From an uncultured Dehalococcoidales bacterium (GTDB taxonomy: Bacteria; Chloroflexota; Dehalococcoidia; Dehalococcoidales; BS750m-G39), in NCBI GenBank assembly GCA_964396965.1, contig CAYNGD010000003.1:106-64105 (forward strand): a stretch of DNA of 64,000 bases, in the 5' to 3' direction. Position numbers and translations under genes: made by a program. The notes under the pieces are model-generated. The model saw only the letters and a list, made by a program, of their open reading frames with translations, made no database searches and was not told the DNA's origin. The number at the start of each line of letters is the position of its first letter. Position 1 is the stretch's first letter. Shown here one piece after another: positions 28,113-43,669 of the stretch.

Positions 28113-28461
28113 GGTCAAGTAAACTGGGTGACCGCCCCATTTTTGGGGAGGAAAGTCCGAGCTCCACCGGGCAGGATGCTGGCTAACGGCCAGGGGGGGC
28201 GACCCTACGGAGAGTGCCACAGAAACACACCGCCTCCTTCTGGGGGTAAGGGTGAAATGGTGAGGTAAGAGCTCACCGGCGGCTGGGTGACCGGTCGGCT
28301 GGGTAAACCCCATCCGGAGCAAGGCCAAATAGAGGGACACAGGGACGCCCGGCCTGTCCCCGGGTTGGCCGCTTGACCCTGGTGGTAACATCAGGGCTAG
28401 ATAGATGGTCACCGCCCCGATTCGTCGGGGTACAGAACTCGGCTTACAGGTTTACTTGGCC
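28113..28461 (+). ncRNA. rnpB: RNase P RNA (bacterial type A)
   Basis: GAGGAAAGTCC, AGTGCCACAGAAA, AAACCCC, GAGCAAGGCCAAATA, ACAGAACTCGGCTTA; 5'/3' ends pair (GGTCAAGTAAAC / GTTTACTTGGCC). Confidence 0.96.
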
Positions 28462-28558
28462 TTTTGACTTTTGGCACTTTTTGGCAACTAAGGTCATTAG
28501 TGATGCACCCTGTGCAAGGAAGTGCGCCAACTGTGCCGGTTCTGTTCGGTGTTGCCAT
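28409..28558 (-). pseudogene. N-terminal fragment of split integrase-like gene, int(N)
   Basis: AAGGAGG (28567-28573), 8 nt, ATG 28558; 41 codons run through the att core, then stop antisense within rnpB; frame matches the fragment beyond attR. Confidence 0.6.
28436..28462 (+). repeat. attL: 27-bp direct repeat (3' end of rnpB)
   Basis: AACTCGGCTTACAGGTTTACTTGGCCT, identical to 39320-39346. Confidence 0.93.
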
Positions 28559-28997
28559 CGTCTTGCCCTCCTTTTCATCATCTTCGCTTATGATTATAGA
28601 TTTGTCAATAGCCTCGTGTCTGAATGGGACAGATGGATAGCTTTAGTTCGACTTCAATAGGCCAATAGAAAGCAAAGGGGGGTCGGTACAACTATTTCTG
28701 ATCAAATAACTGTCTCTGATTATATGCCATAACTCTCACCTAATGCAGGCTCACTTCGCGGCTGGTTAAACAAAACAATGTTTTGTGACCTGTTTAGCCT
28801 TATATACTTAACTTAGTTGCACCATCTGGACTTTTGGTCAATCAATAGGCATTAATATGCCAAACGAAACAGATTGTCAGTACAATACTTCCTTGCTTGT
28901 TTTCCCCAGCAAGGAAATCTCTTGCCCAACCTATAGCTTGACATGGCAGGCATTTCGTTTATAGTATAGCAAAGACATTCAATTTTGGGATGGACAC

Positions 28998-29411
28998 ATG
29001 GTCAAGCCGAAAACGGCCAAGCCAGGAAATAAACCCTCTCGAAGCCGGGAAGCAGGCTACAGCATAAGAGGCCGCATCTGGGTTGAGAAAGACGGTGAAC
29101 TGTATTTGGGGTGGGGCCGAGTGATACTTTTGGAGCGATTGGATGAGATGGGGTCAATTGCCGCTGCCGCTCGTTCCATGGGGCTAACCTATCGCAATGC
29201 TTGGTTGTGGATAGAGTCCATGAACCGCTTGGCTCCTTCCCCTTTGGTTGAGAAGACAATCGGTGGGGGCGGCGGCGGTCATACCAAACTGACAGAGGAA
29301 GGGCATAAAGCCGTCGCCCTATACAAAGAGTTGCACCTCCATTTAGAGAAACTCTTGGAGCAAGAAGCCCTATACATTAACCACGAAAGTGGTGTCCCCG
29401 TATCCCCTTAA
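28998..29411 (+). CDS. ModE-like winged-helix regulator (DNA-binding domain only)
   Basis: GRIWVE, LGWGRVILL, GSIAAAARSMGLTYRNAW, GGGGGGHTKLT; no TOBE domains. Confidence 0.85.
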   Translation: MVKPKTAKPGNKPSRSREAGYSIRGRIWVEKDGELYLGWGRVILLERLDEMGSIAAAARSMGLTYRNAWLWIESMNRLAPSPLVEKTIGGGGGGHTKLTEEGHKAVALYKELHLHLEKLLEQEALYINHESGVPVSP

Positions 29412-29481
29412 CCTAATAATACTAGCTAAGAACCTTTCAAGGCACGTATCAGCTTTATTTAGCAGTTAAGCCGGATCCCAC

Positions 29482-29510
29482 TTGACAAGTCGCTATACCT
29501 TCTGTAATAT
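29482..29510 (+). promoter_or_regulatory. Sigma70 promoter of ABC uptake operon
   Basis: TTGACA-17-TAATAT. Confidence 0.65.
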
Positions 29511-29524
29511 ACACATAATTTAAA

Positions 29525-29546
29525 CTATATCTCCGCAGATATAGCG
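29525..29546. promoter_or_regulatory. ModE-box-like palindrome
   Basis: CTATATCT-CCGC-AGATATAGCG; related CGCTATAC...ATATAC at 29491-29512 overlaps the promoter. Confidence 0.55.
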
Positions 29547-29589
29547 CCTCAGAACTTTGCCGAGAATAAAACGAAGGAGGTCAATTAAT

Positions 29590-30675
29590 TTGAAAACCAA
29601 GGTCTTGACTATTTTTGCGGTTCTGATTCTAGTAGTTGCTCTAATAGCCAGTTTGACCGGTTGTCAGAGCACGGGCGCTCACAATGCTCCGGCAACACCC
29701 GCGCCTACCACCAGAACCATCACCGATATGTATGGCCGCCAGATCACCGTGCCCACCACGATTAATCGCGTGCTGGGCACCAGCCCGATAGAAATGGAGC
29801 TGGTCTATATGCTTGCCCCGGACAAGCTGGTCGGGCTGGCCGTCGAAGTTAAAGGCCAGCCCCCGCTGGTGCCGGAGAAGTACAGCAGCCTACCTGTAAT
29901 AGGGGGCTGGTTCGGCACCCAGACCGGCAACTACGAGACCTTCATCGCCGCTAAACCGGACATCATCCTAGAGGGCTTCGAATCCAGTATTGCCGAAAGG
30001 CAGGAGAAGTTCGGCTCCATCCCAGTGGTGGGCGTCAACGCCGGTGATTATCTAACGAACTACGAAAACGAGGTGCGCTTCCTGGGGGATCTGCTGGGGG
30101 TACAGGCGCAGGCCCAAAGCCTTATCACCTACTACAAGGATGCCATGCAGTATGTCGAAAACGTTGTTTCCGGTATCCCGGATAATGCCAGGGTAAAAGT
30201 GTACTATGCCGAAGGCAAGGATGGTTTCAGTACCGACCCCTCTGTTTCGATGCATACCAAGTTGCTGGAGTTCTGCGGCGGCGAGAACGTGGCCAAGGTT
30301 ACTTTAATACCGGGTTACGGCATGGCCGAGACATCCCTAGAGCAAATCGCACTGTGGGACCCGGACATGATTATCATCGGCCGCAGCAGTCAGGCAACAC
30401 TGTATCAAACGATTATGACCGACTCCAAATGGAGCCAGCTTAAAGCAGTGAAAAACAAGCAGGTCTTCCTTCGGCCGGATAACCCCCTCTCCTGGTTCGA
30501 TGGCCCGCCGGGGCCGTGCCAGATTATCGGCCTGTACTGGATGGTGCACACGCTGTATCCCGATAAAACTAAAGATTTGGACCTGGGGGCCAAGGTTAAA
30601 GAGTTCTACGCCAAATTTTTGCACTATCAACTGACCGATGCCGAGGTGGCCGGGCTGTTAGCCAATCCAAGCTAA
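29590..30675 (+). CDS. ABC transporter substrate-binding lipoprotein (class III, BtuF/FhuD/MolA-like)
   Basis: TTG start after AAGGAGG; lipobox LTGC; TITDMYGRQITVP, KPDIIL, WDPDMIII. Confidence 0.88.
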   Translation: MKTKVLTIFAVLILVVALIASLTGCQSTGAHNAPATPAPTTRTITDMYGRQITVPTTINRVLGTSPIEMELVYMLAPDKLVGLAVEVKGQPPLVPEKYSSLPVIGGWFGTQTGNYETFIAAKPDIILEGFESSIAERQEKFGSIPVVGVNAGDYLTNYENEVRFLGDLLGVQAQAQSLITYYKDAMQYVENVVSGIPDNARVKVYYAEGKDGFSTDPSVSMHTKLLEFCGGENVAKVTLIPGYGMAETSLEQIALWDPDMIIIGRSSQATLYQTIMTDSKWSQLKAVKNKQVFLRPDNPLSWFDGPPGPCQIIGLYWMVHTLYPDKTKDLDLGAKVKEFYAKFLHYQLTDAEVAGLLANPS

Positions 30676-30679
30676 AAAA

Positions 30680-31759
30680 ATGGTTACTGTGGAAAAGGTA
30701 AAGCCGGGCGCGAAGAACTCAAGCTCCGTCCAGGCAAAGAGACTGGGACTGGGCGGGGTATCTACCGGCGTTATTCTGGCCGGTATACTGGCAGTGCTTT
30801 TCATCCTCTCGTTCGCTATTGGCAGATACCCCGTCTCCCCCGTGGATGTGGTCAAGATACTGGTTTCTCATATTCTGCCTCTGCAGCATACTTGGCCCGA
30901 TATACTGAATACGATAGTGATACAGATAAGACTGCCGAGAATACTGGCGGCGATACTGGTAGGCGCCAGCCTAGCGCTGGCTGGCGCCTCCTTTCAGGGA
31001 CTCTTTCGCAACCCGCTGGTGTCTCCAGATATTCTGGGAGTCAGCACGGGCGCCGGCTTCGGCGCCGCCGTGGCTATCCTGCTCTCCTGGAACATGGTCA
31101 TGATACAGGTAGCCGCCTTCATCAGCGCTTTGGTGGCCGTGGGCGTTTCCTACGGCGTGAGCAAGATGGTCAAAGGTAACACTACACTGACCCTCATTCT
31201 GGCGGGCATGGCTATCGGCTCTCTCTTCGGTGCCTTACTTTCTCTGGTGAAATACGTCGCCGACCCCACCAACCAGTTGCCCACCATCACCTACTGGCTC
31301 ATGGGCAGTCTGGCTTCGGTAAGTACACGTGACCTGCTTTTCGCCGCTATCCCGATGCTGGTGGGTATCGCTGTGCTCATCCTTATCCGCTGGCGCTTCA
31401 ACGTGTTGGCGATGGGTGAGGAAGAAGCCATGGCACTGGGAGTAGAAACCAGCCGGCTGCGTGCCATAATCATCGTCTGCTGCACCATGATTACGGCCTC
31501 CTCGGTATGTATCAGCGGCACCATCGGCTGGGTGGGGCTGGTTATTCCCCATATCGGCCGCATGCTGGTAGGGCCGAACCACAGAAGACTCCTCCCCGTG
31601 AGTCTGCTGTTGGGAGCGGCTTACCTCCTGCTGATTGACAATATCTGCCGGGTAGTGGCCAGTGTGGAGATTCCGATAGGGATTCTCACGGCGATTGTCG
31701 GCGTGCCGTTCTTTATTTACCTGCTCAACAGGAGCGGAAGGGGGTGGGCATGGAGCTAA
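30680..31759 (+). CDS. FecCD/BtuC-family ABC permease
   Basis: IRLPRI, FRNPLVSPDILGVS, GTIGWVGLVIPH. Confidence 0.92.
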   Translation: MVTVEKVKPGAKNSSSVQAKRLGLGGVSTGVILAGILAVLFILSFAIGRYPVSPVDVVKILVSHILPLQHTWPDILNTIVIQIRLPRILAAILVGASLALAGASFQGLFRNPLVSPDILGVSTGAGFGAAVAILLSWNMVMIQVAAFISALVAVGVSYGVSKMVKGNTTLTLILAGMAIGSLFGALLSLVKYVADPTNQLPTITYWLMGSLASVSTRDLLFAAIPMLVGIAVLILIRWRFNVLAMGEEEAMALGVETSRLRAIIIVCCTMITASSVCISGTIGWVGLVIPHIGRMLVGPNHRRLLPVSLLLGAAYLLLIDNICRVVASVEIPIGILTAIVGVPFFIYLLNRSGRGWAWS

Positions 31760-32592
31760 TAGTAAATAATGCCGAATTCCACTATGATGCCATCGGAAAC
31801 AGCGGTTTTAAGAACATCAACTTCTCCCTGGAAGATGGCGAGGTAATGTCCATTCTCGGCCCCAATGGTTGCGGCAAGACGACCCTGCTGAAGTGCCTCA
31901 ACAACTTGATTAGACTCGGTAAAGGGAGCATAGCGGTGGATAATCAGGATGTATCGCGTCTGCCCAGAGCCGAGATAGCCAGGTCTATCGGCTATGTGCC
32001 GCAGATGCACCAGCCTGTCTTCCCCTTTACTGTCCTGGATACCGTGCTGGTGGGTAGAGCGCCTCACCTTGGGCTGCTGGCTTCCCCGAAACCGGAGGAT
32101 GTTAAAATTGCCGAACAATCCTTGGACATTATGGGCATTTATCATCTTAGGGATAGACCTTATACCCAGATAAGCGGCGGTGAGAGGCAACTGGTTATCT
32201 TTGCCCGGGTGTTGGCCCAGCAGCCGGCACTTCTCCTTCTGGATGAACCCACCTCGCACCTGGACTTTGGCAATCAGATACGCGTTTTGCACTTGGTGGA
32301 GGAGCTGGCGGCCACCGGCCTTCCTATCATCATGACTACCCACTTCCCTGACCACGCCTTTCTTATGTCCAGCAAGGTGGCTATCATGAAAAATGGTGAG
32401 TTCTTGGACTTTGGCCCGCCTGATGAAGTTATTACCGATGCCAATCTGGAGAAGGCCTACGGCATCAAGGTTAAGGTGCTGGATGTGGATGGCGCTATTA
32501 ACCGAAGAATATGCCTGCCCCTCAAGAGCGACCTTAACTCTATCTCAAACTTAAATATTCTATTGGAGAGACTGTATGGACGAAAACTTTGA
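31750..32592 (+). CDS. ABC transporter ATP-binding protein (FepC/BtuD-like)
   Basis: GPNGCGKTT, ISGGERQ, LLDEPT. Confidence 0.92.
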   Translation: MELIVNNAEFHYDAIGNSGFKNINFSLEDGEVMSILGPNGCGKTTLLKCLNNLIRLGKGSIAVDNQDVSRLPRAEIARSIGYVPQMHQPVFPFTVLDTVLVGRAPHLGLLASPKPEDVKIAEQSLDIMGIYHLRDRPYTQISGGERQLVIFARVLAQQPALLLLDEPTSHLDFGNQIRVLHLVEELAATGLPIIMTTHFPDHAFLMSSKVAIMKNGEFLDFGPPDEVITDANLEKAYGIKVKVLDVDGAINRRICLPLKSDLNSISNLNILLERLYGRKL

Positions 32593-33115
32593 TTTTCTTC
32601 TGCAAAAAGCCAAGGCTTTTCACGGTGATGTCTGTGCCGGTATAGTCCTGGGCACACGATTGACCATAGCCGGCATGAAGGCTCTGGGTATGGACCCCAC
32701 AAAGCGTAACCGCGACCTTATCGTTTTTGTGGAGATTGACCGCTGTATGTCAGACGCAGTGCAGGCCATTACGGGCTGTTCACTGGGGCACCGCACCCTG
32801 AAGTATATTAACTACGGCAGGTTTGCTGCCACTTTCTATGACATGAGTAGAAACCGGGCAGTGCGTGTCTCCCGACGTAATCTACCTATGGGTAATGAAG
32901 ACCTTGTTGAAGCATACACAAACGCTCCAGAAGAGGAGTTGATCAAACTGGAGGAGGTTAAAGTCAGCCTGGATAGTCATGACCTGCCGGGCAGGCCACA
33001 ATCGATGGAGGAGTGCAGCCATTGTGGCGAGCTTATCTTTGATAGTAGAGGGGTCAATGCGGATGGTAAGCTCTTGTGCCGGGCCTGTGCCAGTGGTGCT
33101 TATTATAGCCATTAA
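32576..33115 (+). CDS. FmdE family protein with C-terminal zinc finger
   Basis: FHGDVCAG, EIDRCMSDAVQ, CSLGHRTL, CSHCGE...CRAC. Confidence 0.88.
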   Translation: MDENFDFLLQKAKAFHGDVCAGIVLGTRLTIAGMKALGMDPTKRNRDLIVFVEIDRCMSDAVQAITGCSLGHRTLKYINYGRFAATFYDMSRNRAVRVSRRNLPMGNEDLVEAYTNAPEEELIKLEEVKVSLDSHDLPGRPQSMEECSHCGELIFDSRGVNADGKLLCRACASGAYYSH

Positions 33116-33143
33116 CCAAAGAGCCAGATAAGGAGGCAAAAAC

Positions 33144-33890
33144 ATGATGAAGCTAATAGACGACCTTATTTCAGCAGTACGTCATAATGCCGCTTCGGCT
33201 AAGGATGTGCGAGTGGGGGTCTCTTGGACCGGGGTATGGGGCAAGTACTGCGGGCTTTCCAAGACCTACGGTGTACCTTTTGTCCATGGCAACTACACCC
33301 GTGATATGGGCCACTTGACCGAAAAGACCACCCTGGAACTGGCGGAGTACGCCAAGTCCTGGAACCTGATTGAGGCCAGCATCGGGGTAGCCGCCATCAA
33401 TTCGATGATTAAGGCTAAAGGGGCAGTCAACATCAACGCACGGGAAATCATCCTGCGTAAGGGGCAGGGCAAACGGATAGCGATGTCGGGTGCCTTTCCC
33501 TTTACCCCGGAACTCAAAAAGCTGGCCAAGCAGTTGTGGGTGATGGAACTGGACCAGAGTCAGCTTAATCCAGCCCAAGGCATCATCACTGAAACTGCTG
33601 CTGAATACATCATTCCAGAGTGCGACATAGTGATTATCACCGGCTCCACACTCATCAATAAATCCATGGAAAGACTGCTGGAACTGGCCCGGTTAGCTAA
33701 AGCCTATACTGTTGTTCTCGGCCCCAGCACTCCACTGAGTGAAGTTCTTTTTGACTATGGCGCTCACTTGGTAGCAGGCGCTGAAGTCGTCCAGCCTGAA
33801 GCGGTGCTCAAGAAGCTAAGCCAGAGCGGGGGCATGCTGGATACCAAGGTCTGCCCGGGCGAAATTGCATTTAAGGTTCTGGAAAGATGA
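33144..33890 (+). CDS. DUF364 family protein (Rossmann-like, putative metal chelation)
   Basis: ASIGVAAINS, IITGSTLIN, LGPSTPL. Confidence 0.85.
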   Translation: MMKLIDDLISAVRHNAASAKDVRVGVSWTGVWGKYCGLSKTYGVPFVHGNYTRDMGHLTEKTTLELAEYAKSWNLIEASIGVAAINSMIKAKGAVNINAREIILRKGQGKRIAMSGAFPFTPELKKLAKQLWVMELDQSQLNPAQGIITETAAEYIIPECDIVIITGSTLINKSMERLLELARLAKAYTVVLGPSTPLSEVLFDYGAHLVAGAEVVQPEAVLKKLSQSGGMLDTKVCPGEIAFKVLER

Positions 33891-34537
33891 ACTACCAGAC
33901 CGACCCTCAGCGGATGAACCTGATTGCCAAACTCGCCTTTGCCCCGATATACCCCTATTTAGCCCAGCAGATAAGGGACAAGTTCGGCATAACCAATGGA
34001 ATATGCGTTGACCTTGGTTCGGGCCCGGCCTCACTGGCTATCGCCATAGCCCGCATCACCGATTTAACCATCTATTCCTTGGACATCCAGCCTGAGATGA
34101 TCAGTGTTGCTCGGCAGAATATCGCCGAAGCCGGGTTTTCTTCCCGTATACGCGCCGTAACTGCCGATGTGTGTCGGATGCCCTTTGAAGATAATTCGGT
34201 TGACCTGATGGTTAGCCGCGGCTCTATTTTCTTCTGGGAAGACCGGGTAACGGCTTTCCGGGAAATATACCGTGTCCTCCGGCCCGGCGGGGTAGCCTAC
34301 TGCGGCGGCAGCCTTGGTGACGATACCACGCGGGCGCAGGTAATAGCCGCCTTCAATACCATTGCTGAACTCCAACCATATAAGGAAGATTGGCAGCACA
34401 CAGTCAGCCGCAATATGAATAAGCTGACCTTGGAAACCATGCTCGAAGAACTGGGGCAGGCTGGCGTGCCGGGCACCGTGGAAAAAGAAAACGGAGGTAT
34501 CTGGGCACAGATAATCAAACTGAATAACGAGGCGTAA
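33887..34537 (+). CDS. Class I SAM-dependent methyltransferase
   Basis: VDLGSGPA, DVCRMPF, SRGSIFFW, VLRPGG. Confidence 0.88.
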   Translation: MNYQTDPQRMNLIAKLAFAPIYPYLAQQIRDKFGITNGICVDLGSGPASLAIAIARITDLTIYSLDIQPEMISVARQNIAEAGFSSRIRAVTADVCRMPFEDNSVDLMVSRGSIFFWEDRVTAFREIYRVLRPGGVAYCGGSLGDDTTRAQVIAAFNTIAELQPYKEDWQHTVSRNMNKLTLETMLEELGQAGVPGTVEKENGGIWAQIIKLNNEA

Positions 34538-34775
34538 TAATGGGCAACAGCGATATAACTCCGGGAAGCAGCCCGAGGAATATAGACTGGGCACTGGTAT
34601 GGTGGAACAAATGTCTTGAATAGGTCTAGTCTCCGCACCCCACAACTATTGGCGGTCCTAATTACCAAGAAGTCTTGTTCTGGTTCAGACCCAAGATAGT
34701 CCTAAGAATAGGATACGAGGTCTAACTTGACTTTTAAAGCTGTTTGCAGTAGTTCTTATAAGTATTCAGGAAAAG

Positions 34776-35558
34776 ATGAAAATAAAGCAAGCTTTTGATA
34801 TTCACACTGGTGAAGTGATAAGTCTCGTAGGTGGCGGTGGCAAAACGGCTCTGATGTTTGCCATAGCCCGTGAAATGGTTCTGGACAAGAACCGAATTAT
34901 TACCACGACCACCACCAAAATCTTCGAACCCTTACCTTCTCAGACACAAAAACTTCTTGTGGAGAAAAATGAGGTGAAACTGCTAAAGTTGCTGCTCCAG
35001 CAAATTGATAATTACACTCATATCACCTTAGCCAGTGAAAAACTAGGTTCGGGAAAGTTAAATGGCATCAACCCAGAGCTGGTGACAAAGCTAGCCGGAA
35101 TTGAGAAAATATCTTGCATTATTATTGAAGCAGACGGAGCAGCACACAAATCGCTGAAAGCACCAAACGCAACGGAGCCGGTAATGCCAGATAATACCTC
35201 CCTGGTCATACCAGTCGTGGGCGTTGATGCCTTGGGTTGCCGCTTGACTAAAGAAGAGGTTTTTAGACCAGAAATTGCTGCCGAGTTACTCGGAGTGCCC
35301 ATTGGCGAGGTTATGACAGCCGAGTTGATTGCTCGCTTGATAACTCACCCCCGGGGTATAACCAAAGGAAGCCCGGAAGGGGCAAGGATTATCCCGTTTA
35401 TAAATAAAATGGATTTAAATGAAGGTTTGTCAAAGGGAAGAATCATGGCAAATATGATTTTGGCAATGGGTCATTCTCAAATAAAGTACGTCGTGCTAGG
35501 TCAAGCTCAATCACCAAACCCTGTGACAGAAGTCATTCGGGAGAAAAATCATGGCTGA
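34776..35558 (+). CDS. yqeC: YqeC-family selenium/molybdenum hydroxylase accessory protein
   Basis: SLVGGGGKT, TTTTKI, EADGA..K.LKAP..TEPV.P. Confidence 0.87.
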   Translation: MKIKQAFDIHTGEVISLVGGGGKTALMFAIAREMVLDKNRIITTTTTKIFEPLPSQTQKLLVEKNEVKLLKLLLQQIDNYTHITLASEKLGSGKLNGINPELVTKLAGIEKISCIIIEADGAAHKSLKAPNATEPVMPDNTSLVIPVVGVDALGCRLTKEEVFRPEIAAELLGVPIGEVMTAELIARLITHPRGITKGSPEGARIIPFINKMDLNEGLSKGRIMANMILAMGHSQIKYVVLGQAQSPNPVTEVIREKNHG

Positions 35559-35818
35559 TATCTATGCCGATTGTCCTTAAAGACATTGCTGCTTCACTGT
35601 ACCTGCAAGTCTCAAGTACGCTCCTGACATTAAACAACAGTGATTTTAAAATTATCCCCTCTGAGGAGAGACTCCAACATAATGGAATCGCGTTCAAAGC
35701 CGATTACTTATAAGACTGAACATTACGCTATCTTGTGTCGGGGGGTTTTGGGCGTGTGAGGGCAGGCTACGTGCCGAAGTATATCATTGCTTATTCTCTC
35801 TCCGCAGTCTTTAGCAGG

Positions 35819-35848
35819 TTGACAAATACCTATTGCATAAAATATAAT
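35819..35848 (+). promoter_or_regulatory. Sigma70 promoter of Fur-family gene
   Basis: TTGACA-18-TATAAT. Confidence 0.65.
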
Positions 35849-35864
35849 TGCAACTAGGTGCAAT
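35847..35864. promoter_or_regulatory. Putative Fur-family operator, copy 1
   Basis: ATTGCAACTAGGTGCAAT, one mismatch to the palindrome at 36315. Confidence 0.75.
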
Positions 35865-35868
35865 AACC

Positions 35869-36282
35869 ATGAGCTGCTTGGAAACATTAAGAGAAAAAGA
35901 CCTGAAGCTAACTCCCCAGAGAAGACTGATAATAGACATTATTAACGATGCTCATTCACATCTTACGGGAGAAAATATTATCGACTATGTACAGAGCAAG
36001 ATGCCAAGAGTAAATAAGTCTACCATTTACCGCACTCTGGATATCTTGGAACAAGCCGGATGCGTTTTTAAGAGTAAATACGGCAATCATTTCATCTACC
36101 ATCACGCTGAAGAAGGCCATCATCATCACCTGGTTTGCCGGAGGTGCGGTAAAACCGTGGAATGTTCGGAAAATCTCTTCAGTCAGGTTGAGCAGTCTGT
36201 GGCGGAAAAATATGGCTTCCAGGTTAGTTTCAGACATATCGTGATGAATGGTCTTTGTGGTAACTGTAAAAATCAAGGTTAG
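35869..36282 (+). CDS. Fur-family metal-sensing regulator (Zur/Nur-like)
   Basis: LTPQRRLI, STIYRTL, HHHHLVCRRCG, GLCGNC. Confidence 0.9.
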   Translation: MSCLETLREKDLKLTPQRRLIIDIINDAHSHLTGENIIDYVQSKMPRVNKSTIYRTLDILEQAGCVFKSKYGNHFIYHHAEEGHHHHLVCRRCGKTVECSENLFSQVEQSVAEKYGFQVSFRHIVMNGLCGNCKNQG

Positions 36283-36314
36283 CTGAAGGGTACAGATTAT
36301 TTTTTTGCTCTTGT

Positions 36315-36332
36315 ATTGCAACTAGTTGCAAT
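36315..36332. promoter_or_regulatory. Putative Fur-family operator, copy 2 (perfect palindrome)
   Basis: ATTGCAACT-AGTTGCAAT upstream of the cbiM SD. Confidence 0.8.
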
Positions 36333-36359
36333 TAGAATAAGGAGGTAAAGGAGTATCAG

Positions 36360-37391
36360 ATGCACATACCTGATGGTTATTTGAGTCCGGCCACATGTGG
36401 AACTATGTACGCCGTCTCCGTACCTTTCTGGTATCTAGCCGTTAATCGTGTCCGCAAGTTTCTTACCACCCGCACTGTACCGGTGCTGGCCCTTTTCGCC
36501 GCTTTCTCCTTTGTTTTAATGATGTTCAATGTCCCTATACCCGGGGGAACGACCGCGCATGCGGTGGGTGCAACGCTTCTGGCCATCGTACTGGGTCCCT
36601 GGTCCGCTGTGTTGGGTGTTTCGGTAGCGCTGGGAATTCAGGCATTATTTTTCGGCGATGGTGGCCTGCTCACCTTTGGTGCTAACTGCTTTAACATGGC
36701 TATCGTCATGCCGCTGGTAGGATATTTTATTTATAAAGTAATATCGAGCAATTCGGAGGCTGGTTCGCCCCGCCGTGTGCTGGGGGCAGTCATAGGGAGC
36801 TATGTAGGTATAGTCGCCGCTGCTGCTGCAGCCGGAATTGAGCTCGGTATTCAGCCTGCCCTATTTCACGCTGCCAATGGCACCCCGCTCTATTCTCCAT
36901 ACAGTCTGGGCGTGGCTCTGCCGGCGATGCTAATTGCACACCTGGCTGTGGCAGGTCCAATTGAAGCCGCGGTAACGGGTGGGGTAGTCGCCTATTTGCA
37001 ACGATCTCATACCAGCCTTATTAAGGCAGATAGTTCGAGGAAGAAAGAGGGCAAACTCTGGGTTCTCTGGGGGGCTCTCGGGGTGTTAGCCTTGGCTGCT
37101 CCGCTAGGACTCCTAGCATCCGGTACTGCTTGGGGTGAGTGGGGAGTAGATGAACTTCAGAAGATGGGCCTAGGCTTCATACCCCAGGGGCTGCAGAAAT
37201 TGGCAGGCTGGTGGCCAGCTCCGCTGCCAGACTATGGCTTCCCGAGAATGGGAGCAGTCATCGGCTATATCCTGTCTGCTGTGGTAGGCATGGCTCTGGT
37301 GGCTTTCCTCCTCTGGATGCTTGGCCGGTGGCTCAGTCGCAAGAACTTATCCAAGCCAAGGCTGTCCCCCAAAGAGGAACCGGAAGGGTGA
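36360..37391 (+). CDS. cbiM: Ni/Co ECF transporter substrate component CbiM/NikM fused to PDGLE domain
   Basis: MHIPDGYL, GGTTAH, FGDGG, WGEW, PLPDY. Confidence 0.92.
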   Translation: MHIPDGYLSPATCGTMYAVSVPFWYLAVNRVRKFLTTRTVPVLALFAAFSFVLMMFNVPIPGGTTAHAVGATLLAIVLGPWSAVLGVSVALGIQALFFGDGGLLTFGANCFNMAIVMPLVGYFIYKVISSNSEAGSPRRVLGAVIGSYVGIVAAAAAAGIELGIQPALFHAANGTPLYSPYSLGVALPAMLIAHLAVAGPIEAAVTGGVVAYLQRSHTSLIKADSSRKKEGKLWVLWGALGVLALAAPLGLLASGTAWGEWGVDELQKMGLGFIPQGLQKLAGWWPAPLPDYGFPRMGAVIGYILSAVVGMALVAFLLWMLGRWLSRKNLSKPRLSPKEEPEG

Positions 37392-38206
37392 AAGGCGAAG
37401 GTTTTCTTACCAAGAACATCTCCAGTTTAACCCACACCCTGGAATCTATAATTTCGACCGAAGATTTGTGCCGCGCTCCGGGATTACTCCAGGGCTTAGA
37501 CTCAAGGGTTAAAGTGGTGACCTTCCTGCTTTTCATTGTCATGGTTGGCCTGGCACGGAGTCTATCGGCACTGGCGATAATATTTGTCCTGATCTTGACT
37601 TTGAGTTTCCTCTCTAAAGTGCCGCTGGTGTTTTTCCTCAAGCGTGTTCTCATCTTCATCCCTATCTTTACCGCGGTGATTGCCCTGCCGGCTCTCTTTA
37701 TCACACCGGGCTCACCTCTGGTAGCCCTTGCCGGTAAGATAATCATTACTGAGCAAGGCGCCCGCACTGCCGGGCTCCTGTTCCTTAGAGTAACGGACTC
37801 ACTGTCTTTTGGGGTGCTCCTCATTCTGACTACACCCTGGGCCAGCATACTCGTGGCATTACGTTGGCTTCGTATACCATCGCTACTCGTAGACATCCTG
37901 GGCATGACTTACCGTTATATATTTCTCTTATTGCATACTACCAATTCTATGTTCCTAGCGCGCCGAAGCCGCACCATAGGGAGCTTCTCCAGCGGAGAAA
38001 ACCGACGATGGCTGATTAGGGCCTTAACCACAACGATGGCCAAGTCACAATACCTTAGCGAGGAAGTATATCTCGCTATGCTTTCCCGGGGTTACCAGGG
38101 AGAAACACGTGTCTTGAATGACTTTAGAATAAGGCGCCGGGATTTATTATGGGTAGCCTTTGCCTTGATTGCCGCATCTATCTTATTCTGGGGTAACTAT
38201 CTATGA
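37388..38206 (+). CDS. cbiQ: ECF transporter transmembrane component CbiQ/NikQ
   Basis: LQGLDSRVK, MTYRYIFLL, AMLSRGY; GTG start overlaps cbiM stop. Confidence 0.9.
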   Translation: MKGEGFLTKNISSLTHTLESIISTEDLCRAPGLLQGLDSRVKVVTFLLFIVMVGLARSLSALAIIFVLILTLSFLSKVPLVFFLKRVLIFIPIFTAVIALPALFITPGSPLVALAGKIIITEQGARTAGLLFLRVTDSLSFGVLLILTTPWASILVALRWLRIPSLLVDILGMTYRYIFLLLHTTNSMFLARRSRTIGSFSSGENRRWLIRALTTTMAKSQYLSEEVYLAMLSRGYQGETRVLNDFRIRRRDLLWVAFALIAASILFWGNYL

Positions 38207-39027
38207 GCATATTTGACACAGGGCATATTTTCGAGGCAAAGAACCTGAGCTATGATTATCCAGGAAATGTTCCGGCTTTGAGACAGGTCAACTTTACCAC
38301 TGGAGCGGGAGAATTGATAGCCCTGGTAGGAGTGAATGGCTCTGGGAAGAGCACTCTACTCAAGCTACTGGACGGACTTATATTTCCCACAGACGGAGAG
38401 GTGCTGGCTTTTGGGCATCCTCTTTCCGAAGAGACATTAAAAGACGGGACTTTTGTTGCAGAATTTCGCCGCAAAGTCGGGCTGGTGTTTCAGGACCCGG
38501 ATGTGCAGCTCTTTTCTTCCACGGTCTGGGACGAAGTAACCTTCGGCCCACTTCAGTTGGGAATTCCCAAGGAGGAAGTAGTATCCAGAGGTCTGGAAGC
38601 CCTCAAACTGCTCAACATCGCTCATCTTCGAGAGCGTCCCCCGTATCTTCTCTCTGGTGGGGAGAAAAAGAAGGTCTCCCTGGCTTCCGTGCTTTCATTG
38701 CATCCCCAGGTTCTCCTCCTTGACGAGCCTACTACTGGCCTGGATCCGCAGAGTCAGGGAAATCTTATTGATTTCCTGTTTCAATGGGCCGATGAGGGAA
38801 GGAGCGTGGTTTTCAGTACTCAAGACCTAGATATTGTGGAGGAGATTGCTACCCGTGTGATTGTCATGGGAGCCGAACATAACATTCTGGCTGACGGTAA
38901 GCCGGAAGAATTCCTGTCTGATCCAGATTTTCTCCTTCGGACTAACCTTGTCCATGAACACTCACACAGGCATAGGGAACTCGTACACCGCCACCCACAC
39001 CTGCACGAGCACCAGCACCAGCACTAA
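38203..39027 (+). CDS. cbiO: ECF transporter ATPase CbiO/NikO with His-rich tail
   Basis: GVNGSGKST, LSGGEKK, LLDEPT, HEHSHRH...HRHPHLHEHQHQH. Confidence 0.92.
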   Translation: MSIFDTGHIFEAKNLSYDYPGNVPALRQVNFTTGAGELIALVGVNGSGKSTLLKLLDGLIFPTDGEVLAFGHPLSEETLKDGTFVAEFRRKVGLVFQDPDVQLFSSTVWDEVTFGPLQLGIPKEEVVSRGLEALKLLNIAHLRERPPYLLSGGEKKKVSLASVLSLHPQVLLLDEPTTGLDPQSQGNLIDFLFQWADEGRSVVFSTQDLDIVEEIATRVIVMGAEHNILADGKPEEFLSDPDFLLRTNLVHEHSHRHRELVHRHPHLHEHQHQH

Positions 39028-39083
39028 GGAATATTACCAGAACGGAACCAACGATATAGATGTACTTAGTTATTGCCTGGCCT

Positions 39084-39319
39084 TCATGAATTCTCCACAC
39101 GTGATCTGCCCCCCAGCCATTTTTGATAGCCGGTGATAATCTGCTGATAGCGCTCGATAGTTTTGGGGTCCCGGTCGCTTTGCGCTAGCTCCTGTGATAT
39201 AATTCGAAAGGGTCTGCCATATCAAGGCAATTGTAGTGCATGCCAGCTGGCATACTGTGCACAAGCTGAAAAGCGATACTTTTGGCAATTGCCTGAATTT
39301 GGCTTTCGGTTAGTCTTGT
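39084..39319 (-). pseudogene. Decayed integrase-like fragment, int(C), N-terminal SAM-like domain
   Basis: TRLTESQIQAIAKSIAF...DPFELYH, 1-nt deletion, then QELAQSDRDPKTIERYQQIITGYQKWLGGR; catalytic domain absent. Confidence 0.6.
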
Positions 39320-39346
39320 AACTCGGCTTACAGGTTTACTTGGCCT
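39320..39346 (+). repeat. attR: displaced copy of rnpB 3' end
   Basis: AACTCGGCTTACAGGTTTACTTGGCCT, identical to 28436-28462. Confidence 0.93.
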
Positions 39347-39490
39347 GACTTTAAGGCAAAGAACTCTCTCCCGCCTCTACTTTTCTTTTATTGCGCCTAC
39401 CGTAGTGTCAACATCATTGACAATATTCATCAATATGATTTAAACTATTAACAATTAGTCTATAGTTAATATAATGTTGGGGAAAAGGGA

Positions 39491-39949
39491 ATGATAATGG
39501 ACAAAGCAGAGTCAATTAAGGGAATTGTTGAACTGCAGCGGCAGGCAGGTCGGATTCTGGGGCAGTATGCCGCCAGTGTCTGGCTTGATTCGGGCCTTAC
39601 CCTGGCCCAGCTCAGAAGCCTGTTCTTGATTACTAAAAAGGGAACTACCAACTTTAGGAAGCTGGCAGAAGCTTTGGGAGTCACCCCCGCCGGCGTTACC
39701 CGCATTGTTGACCGCCTGGTGGAGCAGGGGCTGGTCAGCCGGAGGGAGGACCCCAGTGACCGCCGCATGATGGTATTGCAGCCAACGGTTAAGGGGCAAA
39801 CCATCATAGCTAACCTCAGGGAGAGCGGCATAAATCAAATGACCCGGATACTGACGCTTCTCAGCCTGGAAGAGCTTGATGCTCTGTCTCAAGGGCTTTC
39901 CGCGTTTATAAGGGCGGCCAAAACCTACCAGGGAGAGACTCATCCATGA
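39491..39949 (+). CDS. MarR family regulator
   Basis: LTLAQLRSL, VTRIVDRLVEQGLVSRREDPSDRR. Confidence 0.92.
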   Translation: MIMDKAESIKGIVELQRQAGRILGQYAASVWLDSGLTLAQLRSLFLITKKGTTNFRKLAEALGVTPAGVTRIVDRLVEQGLVSRREDPSDRRMMVLQPTVKGQTIIANLRESGINQMTRILTLLSLEELDALSQGLSAFIRAAKTYQGETHP

Positions 39950-40950
39950 ATATGATTGAAGTGGAGGGGCTGACCAAGCGCTTTGGTGAATTCACGGCGG
40001 TGGATCATGTCTCTTTTCAGGTTGAAAAGAGCGAGATACTCGGCTTCCTCGGCCCCAATGGAGCCGGCAAATCGACAACATTACGCATGCTCTGCACCCT
40101 GCTGCGGCCAACAGAAGGCAGCGCCAGGGTAGCCGGTTTTGATATCGCCAGTGAACCGGACAAGGTGAGAGGACACATCGGGCTGGTGGCTGAGAAGCTC
40201 ATCCTTTACGACCAGCTGACCGCTGAGGAGAACCTTACCCTTTTCGGCAGGCTGAACAACCTGCCCGAAGCGCAAATCAGACAGGGAATAGATAAGTGGC
40301 TTGGCCGTCTCCATATGGAGGCATGGCGCAAGTATAAGGTAGGGGCATTTTCAACAGGCATGAAGCAGCGGATAAACGTTGCCCGCGCCCTTCTCCATCA
40401 CCCCGACGTCCTCTTCCTTGACGAGCCTACCCTGGGACTCGACCCGCAGACGACCAGGGCCATTCACGAATTTATTATCGAACTGGGCCAGGAAGGCATC
40501 ACCACCGTGCTCACCACTCATGACATGGTTGAAGCCGGGGCTCTCTGTCATCGCATCGCCATTATTGACCGGGCCAAGATAGTTGCCCTTGATACCACCG
40601 GTAATTTGAAGCGGCTGGTCTCTAACGGCGATACGACGGTAGTTGATATGGAAATCTCCAACCTTAGCCAGTCGATGCTCTCTCAGATGAAGGATGTGGA
40701 GGCGGTTGTCTCCGTAGCGCAAACTGATTCGTACCGGGTGAGAATCAACATCAAGGGTAGCGATGCGGTCGGCCGGATTGTGAGCGCTGTCGTCGCTGGT
40801 GGGGGTAATATCCGGGCGATAAACACGGCGGAACCGAGCCTGCAGGATGTCTTCCTGTATCTTACCGGGCGTGAGATGCGCGACCAGGCGACTGAGAGGG
40901 TTCCTTCAGTTCGGGGACGCCGCTGGCGAAGAACCTCAAGAGTGAGATAA
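39946..40950 (+). CDS. ABC exporter ATP-binding protein (DrrA-like)
   Basis: GPNGAGKST, FSTGMKQR, LDEPTLGLDP, PSLQDVFLYLTG. Confidence 0.92.
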   Translation: MNMIEVEGLTKRFGEFTAVDHVSFQVEKSEILGFLGPNGAGKSTTLRMLCTLLRPTEGSARVAGFDIASEPDKVRGHIGLVAEKLILYDQLTAEENLTLFGRLNNLPEAQIRQGIDKWLGRLHMEAWRKYKVGAFSTGMKQRINVARALLHHPDVLFLDEPTLGLDPQTTRAIHEFIIELGQEGITTVLTTHDMVEAGALCHRIAIIDRAKIVALDTTGNLKRLVSNGDTTVVDMEISNLSQSMLSQMKDVEAVVSVAQTDSYRVRINIKGSDAVGRIVSAVVAGGGNIRAINTAEPSLQDVFLYLTGREMRDQATERVPSVRGRRWRRTSRVR

Positions 40951-40958
40951 TAAAGAAG

Positions 40959-42155
40959 GTGATTGGTATGCTTGGTGATTTCAGAAGGGTGGTCATGCAT
41001 AGCCTCCGCCTCGGAATTAAAGACCTTTTGGTCTTCGCCCGTGACCGGATGATGCTTATCTCCTTTATAATCATGCCTATCTTCATGATGATAATGATGG
41101 GCTTTATCTTCCCGTCACAGAACGTTTTGAAGAATGCCCCGTTGGGCATCGTCAATCTCGACGAGGGCCCGCTCGGTGCCCAGATAAATTCGGCAGTCCA
41201 GCAGCTAAACCGGCAGCAGAGTGAACGGATGTTCGCCATAACCTATCTCCGCAGCAAGGGCATGGCCATAGAACAGATAAAGGAGCAGATGATAAATGGC
41301 GCCATAATTATCCCTGCCGACTTCTCGGCCAAGATAGCCGATGGCGAGCAGGCCTCGGTTATTATCATCACCGACCAGTCCAACCCCCAGGTATCGGCGG
41401 GTATCACCGGGGTACTGGACGCGCTCATGTCCACCACGGCCAGCCAGCTGGCCGCCAAGAACGTAGCCGCCCTGGTGCCGGGTGTGAGCGACCCGCAGTC
41501 GCTGGTTATGCCGTTTACGGTAGAGACCGAGGGCACCGTTCCGGGCAAGCCCAACTATTTCGAGTTCATCGCTCCCGGCCTGATGGCAATGGTCATCATG
41601 TTTGCCGCTATGACCGGCCTGGCGGCTTCCATATCGAGAGAACGCGAACTGGGTACCCTGGATGGCATCCTGTCAGCTCCCATTAGCCGGCTTTCTATCG
41701 TGCTGGGCAAGAGCTTCGCCCAGGTGGTGCGCGGACTGCTGCAGGCCATGCTCGCCCTGATTCTGGCTATAGTGCTCTTTGGTGTCGTCGTTCACGGCAG
41801 CTACGCCCTGCTGTTTTTACTACTGTTGCTGACCGTATTCTCTTTTATCGGCATCGGCATCATAATATCGGCGCTGGCTTCGGAACAGGAGACCGCCATG
41901 ACGATAATGATGACCATCACCTTTCCCATGCTCTTTCTTTCCGGTGCCCTCTTTCCCATTCAACAGATGCCGACCGCTGTCCAGGCTGTTTCTAAGTTTC
42001 TGCCGCTGACCTATGCGGTTAACGCCCTGCGCAAGTGCATCGTGCTCGGCACCGGCATCACCGGGATGATGACGGAGGTCTGGGTGATGCTCGGTTTCGG
42101 CATTGTTTTTACGGTGATCGCAATACCTGTGTTCAATCGGATTATTAGCCGGTAA
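40959..42155 (+). CDS. ABC-2 type permease
   Basis: ERELGTLDGIL, PMLFLSGALFPI, PLTYAVNALR. Confidence 0.9.
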   Translation: MIGMLGDFRRVVMHSLRLGIKDLLVFARDRMMLISFIIMPIFMMIMMGFIFPSQNVLKNAPLGIVNLDEGPLGAQINSAVQQLNRQQSERMFAITYLRSKGMAIEQIKEQMINGAIIIPADFSAKIADGEQASVIIITDQSNPQVSAGITGVLDALMSTTASQLAAKNVAALVPGVSDPQSLVMPFTVETEGTVPGKPNYFEFIAPGLMAMVIMFAAMTGLAASISRERELGTLDGILSAPISRLSIVLGKSFAQVVRGLLQAMLALILAIVLFGVVVHGSYALLFLLLLLTVFSFIGIGIIISALASEQETAMTIMMTITFPMLFLSGALFPIQQMPTAVQAVSKFLPLTYAVNALRKCIVLGTGITGMMTEVWVMLGFGIVFTVIAIPVFNRIISR

Positions 42156-42190
42156 CAGACTCAAGGCATAACAGTTGGAGGAACTAACCG

Positions 42191-43573
42191 ATGAAGAAAT
42201 TGTATTTCTGGCTGTCAATCATTTTGGCAATAACGCTGTTTGTGGGGACAGCCGCCCCGGCATCGGCCCGAGTCAAGGGGGAGCCTGACCTGCAGGCAAC
42301 GGTGGTCGGGAGTGGTGAGTTTCCGGTAGGGCAGGTGGGAGTGTTACAGATAATGCTCCAGAACAACGGGACTTTCTCCGGCGGGACGGAAGACCCGGAT
42401 GACCAGGTGATGGCGCTCGGCTACACCAATGCCTTGGGCGTTACCCTGGCACCGCCCTGCACCACCGCTATCAGTGTCACCGCTACTTTGGAATCGACCA
42501 GTCCATCAATTAAAGTCCTGAGCGGGCCCACGGCGGTTGGGACCCTGCCCCGCGGGATGACCACAGTGCAGCCAGTAACCTTTCAACTCCAGGTGGCTAA
42601 GAACGCCCAACCCGGGACCTACTCTCTCCAGGTGGAACTTAAATATCAGTACCTGCAAAACGTTAACTGGCTCAATCCGATACAGCTCGTCCCCGCCGGG
42701 CTGACGAGCTCATCCTACCAGCCTGAGTTTGCCTTCTACTGGGGGAACAAAGAACAGCAGGTGGAGATACCGATAACGGTTGTCGGCACCTATTTCTCGG
42801 TAGCGGTCACCCAGACAGAGGGCGTCAGGGTGGGGACAACCGGCGTTATAACGCTGGATATTCAGAACAGCGGGGGCGACGAGGCAGATGGGGTCACCGC
42901 TGAGGTAGTCCCCGGAGTCAATTTTTCTCCCCTCGGCCCGGCTAGTTTTCTGGGGGATATTCCCCGTGGTAGTTCGGTCACTACTCAATTTAAGGTGTCG
43001 GTCTCACCGAAGGCGATTGCCAAGGACTGTCCTCTGGATATCCTGATTAAGTATAAAGATGAGAAAAACATCCCCAGGCAGCTGCCGCTGACTGTCGGCG
43101 TGCCGGTGAAAGAAGAGGTGAAATTTGAGCTAGAGCCTACCAGGGTTGATGGTGGCAATCTTACCCCCGGGGCCGAAAAAATAATCGAAATTCCCATTGT
43201 TAATGCCAGCGATTCTGAGGTCAAGGATGCCACGGCCCGAATCAACATTGTCGACCCGTTTTCCACCGCCCCGTTTTCGACTACCGATGATACCGCCTAT
43301 ATCGGGACGCTCCAGCCGGGAGAAAGCGGCACGGCCAAGTTCAGGATAACCGTTGACACTGATGCCGTAGCCAAGGCATACACGCTGGAGGTGGAGGTCA
43401 AATACTGGGACTCTTTGGATAATTCCTATATCTCCCAGCCGATGAGGGCAGTGGTAACTGTGCAGCCGTCTTCTGGACTCTCGGTAACAACTATCGTTGT
43501 CATTTCCCTGGCGGCTGTGGTTGTCATCGGCATCATCTTCTACCTTATAAGAAGGGGCAGGAAAGCGGCGTGA
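42191..43573 (+). CDS. Secreted COG1361-like (S-layer-associated) Ig-repeat protein with C-terminal anchor
   Basis: Signal peptide, PGTYSLQVELKY, IGTLQPGES, C-terminal TM followed by RRGRK. Confidence 0.72.
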   Translation: MKKLYFWLSIILAITLFVGTAAPASARVKGEPDLQATVVGSGEFPVGQVGVLQIMLQNNGTFSGGTEDPDDQVMALGYTNALGVTLAPPCTTAISVTATLESTSPSIKVLSGPTAVGTLPRGMTTVQPVTFQLQVAKNAQPGTYSLQVELKYQYLQNVNWLNPIQLVPAGLTSSSYQPEFAFYWGNKEQQVEIPITVVGTYFSVAVTQTEGVRVGTTGVITLDIQNSGGDEADGVTAEVVPGVNFSPLGPASFLGDIPRGSSVTTQFKVSVSPKAIAKDCPLDILIKYKDEKNIPRQLPLTVGVPVKEEVKFELEPTRVDGGNLTPGAEKIIEIPIVNASDSEVKDATARINIVDPFSTAPFSTTDDTAYIGTLQPGESGTAKFRITVDTDAVAKAYTLEVEVKYWDSLDNSYISQPMRAVVTVQPSSGLSVTTIVVISLAAVVVIGIIFYLIRRGRKAA

Positions 43574-43669
43574 CCCTTAGCTGATGTCACTTTTGCTTGT
43601 TGCCGAATTTCCCCCTCTCGGCTATGATAACCCTGTCTGCCCAAGCGACTTTCAAGGAGAGTGAGTCTG

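Follow-up and report, generated by a model that had tools for sequence, protein, structure and literature searches.

An rnpB-associated genomic island in a Dehalococcoidales bacterium carries the remnant of an integrase gene whose long reading frame probably spans its own attachment site

We analyzed a 64,000-nucleotide (nt) stretch of DNA from an uncultured Dehalococcoidales bacterium (GenBank assembly GCA_964396965.1, contig CAYNGD010000003.1), referred to in its full length as the window. It contains a genomic island at the 3' end of rnpB, the gene for the RNase P RNA, and the two ends of the island carry pieces of what was probably one integrase gene reading through the element's own attachment (att) site. 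A match to Rfam family RF00010 (311 bits, full model, model positions 1 to 367) placed rnpB at 28116 to 28462 on the plus strand. The last 27 nt of the gene, AACTCGGCTTACAGGTTTACTTGGCCT, are present at 28436 to 28462 and again, as a direct repeat with 100% identity, at 39320 to 39346; the chance expectation for a 27-bp repeat, from 100 shuffles, was zero matches. Between the two copies of this core lie 10.9 kb with metal-uptake and cofactor genes, in the layout of an island in a small RNA gene: insertion at the 3' end, restoration of the gene, and a displaced repeat at the far border. A tRNA scan detected no tRNA genes in the window. Open reading frames (ORFs), a Shine-Dalgarno (SD) sequence, and other features of the two ends are as follows.

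28116 to 28462, plus strand: rnpB, bacterial class A RNase P RNA, intact, the integration target (Rfam RF00010)
28436 to 28462, no strand assigned: attL core, the final 27 nt of rnpB (exact 27-bp direct repeat)
39320 to 39346, no strand assigned: attR core, displaced copy of the rnpB 3' end (exact repeat)
28593 to 28622, minus strand: outward-facing sigma-70-like promoter, CAGACA, 18 nt, TATAAT (promoter scan, 10 of 12 matches)
28567 to 28573, minus strand: SD sequence AAGGAGG, 8 nt before an ATG (sequence)
28463 to 28558, minus strand: N-terminal mini-exon, the ATG and 31 further codons, MATPNRTGTVGALPCTGCITNDLSCQKVPKVK (ORF list and sequence)
39100 to 39319, minus strand: integrase remnant, a putatively translated spacer (TRLTESQIQAIAKSIAFQLVHSMPAGMHYNCLD) and the first ~35 residues of a SAM-like core-binding domain (comparison with homologs)
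39218 to 39235, minus strand: family-conserved internal ATG (39220 to 39218), preceded by TACAAT (39235 to 39230) with a 9-nt spacer and no SD sequence

At the left end, the SD sequence (28573 to 28567; CCTCCTT on the plus strand) and the ATG at 28558 to 28556 open the frame MATPNRTGTVGALPCTGCITNDLSCQKVPKVK-RPSKPVSRV-LYPDESGR*. RPSKPVSRV is the minus-strand translation of the core, which the mini-exon enters in the core's sole open frame; as integrated, the ORF extends to 28409 and ends 8 codons inside rnpB, as a sequence-only reading of this DNA had described. A sequence search found no homologs of this 49-aa left-end ORF. On the same strand at the right end, a stop codon and ten codons without a start (RRERVLCLKV) lead into the core in the same frame as at the left end, and the frame then reads RPSKPVSRV-TRLTESQIQAIAKSIAFQLVHSMPAGMHYNCLDMADPFELYHRS, the continuation being TRLTESQIQAIAKSIAFQLVHSMPAGMHYNCLDMADPFELYH. 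One frame over, the sequence reads ELAQSDRDPKTIERYQQIITGYQKWLGGRSRVENS, in which ELAQSDRDPKTIERYQQIITGYQKWLGGR is followed by residues without homology until a stop is reached. Homologs read ELYH[KRT]ELAQSD where the window is without one G in AGGGAG (at about 39191 to 39192), and the window therefore has a 1-nt deletion, as had been proposed. When the two ends were joined in silico, they formed one continuous frame up to this frameshift. The right-end piece had also been said to have no start of its own before an upstream stop; none precedes the core, but in-frame ATGs are present downstream of it (in HSM, AGM, and LDM), and the Met of LDM is the family-conserved one.

The right-end piece corresponds to about 75 codons of a tyrosine integrase N terminus and is open through the core. 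It stops after WLGGR, at about residue 35 of the core-binding domain; only the first helices of this domain are present, and everything beyond is deleted, including the PF00589 catalytic domain with its R-K-H-R-H/W-Y residues, whose loss the sequence-only reading had foreseen. The fragment being too short for Pfam and PHROGs, which gave no significant match with the 120-aa rebuilt protein, we established homology by sequence search. A first search with the fragment returned three short homologs (P0001 to P0003), with which the remnant aligns at 77 to 81% identity; one of them, P0003 at locus L037, has PF13495/PF02899, and the neighboring ORF has PF00589. A rebuilt full-length query matched over 300 proteins, with identities of 50 to 86% for about 100 of them, annotated as integrase or XerC/D. 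Family members carry PF13495 and PF00589, and in intact homologs R133, K158, H216, R219, and H242 are invariant and Y251 is nearly so. An AlphaFold2 model of P0048 was confident (mean predicted local distance difference test score [pLDDT], 84), and its nearest solved folds were XerA, Tn1549 Int, the integron integrase IntI, XerH, and Cre. The closest intact integrase, P0042 at locus L237, is 95% identical in DNA to the window over 39107 to 39346, so the fragment is a tyrosine integrase N terminus, as had been suspected. The flanking chromosomes of the window and L237 are 72 to 78% identical, which argues for horizontal movement of the element. By sequence comparison, the window remnant goes back to an integrase like P0042 from which all sequence past residue ~35 was lost. 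In IMG/VR, the closest relative had at most 41% identity; there is no sign that these elements are recognized viruses.

A locus search with the single rebuilt integrase yielded just one unrelated Hyphomicrobium locus; the loci of relatives were found by alignment-based scans, which returned about 100 from Dehalococcoidia metagenome-assembled genomes (MAGs) and metagenomes. In ~75 of 92 loci, the rnpB core lies 55 to 175 nt upstream of the conserved Met, whose motif across the family is M-x-x-F-x-x-Y-H. The suggestion of a bacterial rnpB-targeting family thus proved right, and the family is a large one in Dehalococcoidia. Its loci fall into two orientation classes. In the window's class (~20 loci), the reverse-complemented core precedes the integrase gene (int), which therefore occupies the distal end of the island, reading inward. 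In the opposite class (~50 loci), which the sequence-only reading had not foreseen, int follows rnpB immediately, on the same strand, and the core has plus orientation. Opposite-class loci include L037, L059 to L065, L078 to L105, L219, L221, and L234 to L236. The core in plus orientation is open in all three frames, and integrases use each of them. Automatic gene calls for this class often run into rnpB, giving N termini such as 'MVTAP...' and 'LDRWSP...', which are annotation artifacts.

The exact 27-mer was present in 33 genome contigs, nearly all from Dehalococcoidales/Dehalococcoidia MAGs and mostly as the plain end of rnpB, which identified the host lineage and showed the core to be the conserved 3' end of rnpB. 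In many Dehalococcoidales loci, rnpB is followed directly by conserved chromosomal flank; presence of the island is sporadic, with such empty sites in relatives and different content in L035. An element of ~30 nt, CCAGCTTGGGGCTGAGAAAAGGGAAGTAA, located 25 to 30 nt downstream of rnpB, is conserved in many Dehalococcoidales (L006, L008, L015, L025, L066, L067, L069, L072, and L086) and marks the chromosomal side of attB, the empty site, and of attR.

We then asked whether the frame through the core and the spacer, i.e., the sequence between core and conserved Met, behaves as a translated one. Among 53 distinct spacers, the integrase frame contains 1 stop, compared to 114 and 52 in the other two frames. 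Differences between spacers fall on codon positions 1, 2, and 3 in the numbers 733, 570, and 804, a coding pattern that is weaker than the one downstream. Spacers in the window's class measure 96, 99, 105, or 114 nt, and the integrase frame is in each case the sole open frame of the reverse-complemented core; L079 and L082, the exception, use another frame, and their core variant is without TAA. In-frame ATG, GTG, or TTG codons are almost absent near the core side of the spacer, and a candidate start of P0016's own was rejected when it proved to be a TTG inside the core. At the core-less locus L232 (protein P0047), AGGAGGTGA is followed after 5 nt by an ATG twelve codons upstream of the same helix-forming region, which shows the long form to be a real protein. 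Neither Rfam nor a tRNA scan detected an RNA gene ahead of this core-less integrase. In the P0048 model, residues 1 to 20, coded by mini-exon and core, are disordered, residues 24 to 40 form a helix (pLDDT, ~70), and the confident fold starts at residue 56, right after the conserved Met. A disordered linker of this kind would tolerate either core orientation and any open frame.

If the frame crosses the core in the joined element, start signals would be expected at the end opposite to int. Such signals were found in elements of both classes, as listed here.

Window (its own class): AAGGAGG, 8 nt, ATG, 32 codons before the core
L040, a 3.3-kb element (window's class): AAGGAGG, 7 nt, GTG, 5 codons, in frame
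L009 (window's class): GGAGG, 10 nt, ATG, 10 codons, in frame
L035 (window's class): left end as in the window, with the same MATPNR start and SD sequence; the frame is now broken
L016 (opposite class): AAGAGGAG, ATG, 8 more codons
L014 (opposite class): AAGGAGG, ATG, 8 more codons
L118 (opposite class): just a 4-nt SD match (AGGT), ATG, 5 more codons

The mini-ORFs of L016, L014, and L118 enter the core in frames used by the integrases of that class, and promoter-like sites precede the start modules of the window, L040, and L014. Across ~70 distinct rnpB-adjacent flanks, an SD match of at least 5 nt with an in-frame start was present only in the window, L040, L009, and L006, the last being a likely chance case with 3-nt spacing. 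As background, a 7-nt SD match precedes 0.8% of start-like triplets in the window, and one of at least 5 nt precedes 7.5%. The mini-ORFs of different elements resemble one another in neither length nor sequence, so the conserved feature is a start that reads across the core. N- and C-terminal parts of int lie at opposite element ends in the window (28463 to 28558 and 39100 to 39319), and L040 has the same layout; L009 displays the start-bearing end only. Full-length homologs beside rnpB with a reading frame through the core, which the sequence-only reading had proposed to look for, thus exist, with their start signals at the other end of the element. For P0038, P0016, P0075, P0087, P0084, and P0042, the second att site was not reached on the longer contigs. 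At L118 (14788 to 14900), attR is followed in the same frame by a ~100-nt remnant of a second integrase N-terminal region, MTGRPV-TRLTGLLD-SSYHQAALEEVKAASLYS, which looks like a scar left by two insertions in tandem, with a gene once restored across their junction.

Together, these results suggest, with a probability that we put at roughly two in three, that the window holds the decayed remnant of an rnpB-targeting element whose long int frame spans attP, the att site of the joined element, and is split by integration. The predicted split is well supported by comparison among relatives, and the core lies inside the int reading frame and would be translated, judging from the in silico junction and the family alignment. 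Several observations weigh against this interpretation. Start-bearing attL ends in the window's class number only three, of which two (L040 and L009) are independent of the window. The search with the rebuilt full-length query found no junction-spanning protein or circular attP form (best coverage, 90%) and no protein covering the N-terminal mini-exon. The ratio of nonsynonymous to synonymous differences (pN/pS) in the spacer is 0.5 to 0.95, and the spacer frame is not clearly separated from control frames by this measure; some of the spacer conservation lies at the DNA level, for example in ATTGCC and TGCCAAAAGT. In the opposite orientation, the close relatives L061 and L037 differ by 1 nt at the core junction, so that this class has no fixed frame across the core. 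Chance extensions of ORFs from chromosomal flanks also occur: those at the N termini of P0014 and P0018, considered as junction-spanning genes, were rejected as chance ORFs in the flank downstream of rnpB.

The strongest rival is a conventional rnpB island in which the integrase always starts at the internal Met, attP lies ~100 nt upstream of the gene, and the left-end ORF is a coincidence or an unrelated small gene. In 53 distinct copies, the conserved Met, which follows the core after 30 to 55 codons, is encoded by ATG (47 copies) or GTG (6 copies). It has no SD sequence, but a TAnnnT hexamer precedes it by 6 or 9 nt in 52 of these copies. The last T of the hexamer is the invariant third base of Pro, Thr, Ser, or Asn codons, which implies a constraint at the DNA level. 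No -35 element matching this internal -10-like hexamer was found; the idea of a leaderless promoter comes from the hexamer and its spacing only. AGGAGG accompanies the conserved Met in relatives at 39% identity, so this Met is the ancestral start and a complete recombinase can start downstream of the core, which also speaks against the long frame. The confident fold begins just past the Met, 41 of 52 complete integrated copies retain an intact body of at least 260 codons, unlike rapidly decaying pseudogenes, and the rebuilt-query search recovered no attP-spanning protein; all of this is what a conventional island would give. Such an island nevertheless leaves unexplained the count of 1 spacer stop against 114 and 52, the fixed match to the open frame of the core across different spacer lengths, the SD sequences and starts at the partner ends of unrelated elements (5, 10, and 32 codons from the core), and the canonical SD sequence and ATG upstream of the helix at L232; that the 49-aa left-end ORF has no homologs speaks against an unrelated small gene. 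On balance we consider a conventional island unlikely.

We rate as considerably less probable a second alternative, in which the left-end module is built to read outward, either antisense into rnpB or out into host DNA, and has nothing to do with the integrase. A transcript from the integrated module would indeed be antisense to the rnpB 3' end, but an antisense RNA needs neither an SD sequence nor a start codon, and the corresponding module of L014 and L016 points away from rnpB, toward the downstream flank, so that the common factor is reading across the core and not into rnpB. That the 27-bp repeat arose by chance or by misassembly, with no island present, is practically negligible and already refuted by the shuffles and by L034/L035: the repeat is exactly the rnpB 3' end and is expected zero times by chance, an integrase remnant adjoins it, and a related genome has other cargo between the same ends.

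With the long frame split at attP as the preferred interpretation, the life cycle of the element may be pictured as follows. The element would insert into the last 27 nt of rnpB, carrying promoter, SD sequence, and start codon on one side of its core and the rest of int on the other, namely a weakly constrained spacer of ~35 to 55 codons and then the Xer-like core-binding and catalytic body. In the circular form both sides would be joined, the core being translated as a disordered linker, and the joined circle would drive strong integrase expression on arrival in a cell, possibly to the exclusion of any other state. Integration would leave the start signals at the other island end, pointing into rnpB, and the body with only an internal ATG or GTG behind a -10-like hexamer. 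From this internal start, a short, possibly leaderless isoform might be made at a low level after integration, possibly for excision; the hexamer and the intact bodies are weak pointers to such a product. In the window copy, the body would have been deleted after ~35 core-binding residues and what remained frameshifted. The sequence-only reading had the integrase silenced by integration, which is made uncertain by the internal ATG or GTG with its hexamer in 52 of 53 copies, the SD sequence at this Met in distant relatives, and the 41 of 52 intact bodies. A possible but rather doubtful extension is that one gene yields two isoforms chosen by the state of the element, a long one across the joined attP for integration and a short leaderless one for rare excision. 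If true, directionality and dosage would be set by a gene split at its own att site, without a separate excisionase, and the family would be a bacterial counterpart of the archaeal 'suicidal' integrases that escapes suicide.

The chromosome of the window is collinear with those of L034 and L035 and 73 to 77% identical to them, and the only island parts shared with these loci are 28463 to 28579 (81%) and 39105 to 39344 (87%). The window and L035 share the point of integrase truncation and carry entirely different cargo; at this site L237, whose genome is closely related to that of L035, retains an intact integrase. The retained arms, 117 nt and 240 nt on either side of the core, amount with it to ~385 bp, about the size of an attP. 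The window island therefore has att sites and arms but no recombinase, and it looks like a kept attP equivalent around exchangeable cargo, which would make it non-autonomous. Its two ends are better conserved than the surrounding chromosome, so the copy may still be mobilizable in trans and is not necessarily fixed, as it had been described. The arms and the cargo contain these further features.

28463 to 28579, minus strand: conserved left arm of the element (blastn against L034/L035, 81% identity)
28467 to 28487, minus strand: two overlapping copies of (T/G)TGCCAAAA(A)GT beside the core (k-mer comparison, in silico attP)
39278 to 39288, minus strand: third copy, TTGCCAAAAGT, overlapping the 'AIAKS' codons (k-mer comparison, in silico attP)
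28998 to 39027, plus strand: cargo of 12 genes with no recombinase (ORF list; Pfam on the first ten ORFs)

The third repeat copy, TTGCCAAAAGT, is present at the same place in L035 and L237, and TGCCAAAAGT flanks the core three times, twice on the left arm and once on the right. The TGCCAAAA-type repeats around the core are candidate attP binding sites for the recombinase or an accessory protein. Inside the integrase remnant, at 39245 to 39258, lies a perfect 14-nt palindrome, ATGCCAGCTGGCAT; homologs have TGCCA-N2-4-TGGCA at this site, preceded by a conserved GCACAGT.

By Pfam, the cargo encodes a ModE-like helix-turn-helix regulator, a Peripla_BP_2/FecCD/ABC_tran transporter, FmdE with a zinc finger, DUF364/DUF4213, a methyltransferase, YqeC, a Fur-family regulator, and CbiM (with PDGLE), followed by CbiQ-like and CbiO-like proteins, which were named from ORF sequence and operon position only. 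Integration explains how this metal-uptake and cofactor block came to adjoin rnpB in the window. A near-palindrome, ATTGCAACTAG(G/T)TGCAAT, at 35845 to 35873 (upstream of the Fur-family gene) and 36314 to 36341 (upstream of cbiM) probably serves as operator for the metal regulator that the island itself encodes. Between attR and a CtpB-like S41 peptidase gene, ~4.4 kb (39347 to 43775) encode a MarR-like regulator, an ATP-binding cassette (ABC) ATPase, an ABC-2 permease, and a 460-aa ORF. The collinear loci L034, L035, and L237 do not have this stretch, the peptidase gene adjoining attR there. An earlier insertion event at this hotspot may account for it, but no third copy of the core was found, with up to 3 mismatches allowed.

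A genome scan for further attR junctions in the window's orientation recovered mostly another remnant, the core followed by ACAGGTCTAC, with no integrase. In the genome contigs L223 to L226 and L228, the core is followed by ACAGGTCTAC..., and the locus has no integrase homolog. The ACAGGTCTAC junctions share the first 9 to 10 nt after the core with L233 and are probably scars of deleted elements. P0059, on a 1.14-Mb contig, is a 388-aa product in which a CT398-like zinc-ribbon N-terminal part is fused to the integrase from the conserved Met. In the window, the CT398-like zinc-ribbon gene lies two genes upstream of rnpB, which suggests that the fusion arose by deletion of RNase H and rnpB or is a gene-calling artifact. 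At L046 (9160 to 9400), a tRNA gene, tRNA-Val(GAC) by eye, is immediately followed by a distant member of the family (36% identity) whose frame is open through the tRNA 3' end; the split arrangement may thus be older than the switch to rnpB. These observations mark rnpB as a hotspot of repeated integration in a group that is environmentally important and hard to culture. Hotspots of this type also break MAG assemblies, and many contigs here stop at or near the core.

Several known systems share parts of this arrangement. Genomic islands in the 3' end of the tmRNA gene are known from the ssrA islands of Dehalococcoides. Like these and the tRNA islands, the rnpB elements use a tyrosine integrase to enter the 3' end of a small stable RNA gene, restore that end, and leave a displaced copy at the far border, and distant relatives such as the one at L046 even sit directly after a tRNA gene; the rnpB target and the integrase start signals across the att site set them apart. 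Cis-mobilizable elements (CIMEs) are att-flanked and have no recombination module. The window island resembles them in its att sites and conserved arms without a working integrase, and in the occurrence of the same arms with other cargo elsewhere. Circles of the IS911/IS30 type form junction promoters, and Tn916 is transcribed in its circular form. As may hold here, strong recombinase expression follows only when the element ends are joined; those systems assemble a promoter or a transcript, whereas here a translation start would be fused in frame via the att core. The rnpB family would thus be a simple way to couple integrase expression to the circular state.

In Myxococcus Mx8, attP overlaps the 3' end of int. 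The same is true of the Burkholderia phages phi52237, phiE202, and phiK96243 (PMC2920897). In these bacterial cases, too, integration cuts the int frame at the att core, but it is the C-terminal end that is exchanged, and promoter and start are kept; in the rnpB elements, the 5' end with promoter, SD sequence, and start codon would be removed. The closest parallels are the SSV-type integrases, whose gene is split on integration and which reviews describe as exclusively archaeal (PMC7253208, PMC8371274). As in SSV1, pTN3, and pT26-2 (type I, 'suicidal'), attP would lie inside the int frame with the core translated, integration would part the N- and C-terminal pieces, and a tandem or circular junction would restore the gene. 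The differences are substantial. The hosts here are bacterial (Dehalococcoidia MAGs), the integrases are Xer-like (PF00589 with PF13495) and fall outside the archaeal PF16795 superfamily, and the target is rnpB and not a tRNA gene. The split would remove a start codon and a disordered tail of 5 to 32 residues, not a functional half; an internal start is kept, most integrated copies are intact, and both core orientations occur. A widespread Dehalococcoidia family with the core inside a long int frame would end the archaea-only boundary of such integrases and would point to an independent origin in an Xer-like lineage.

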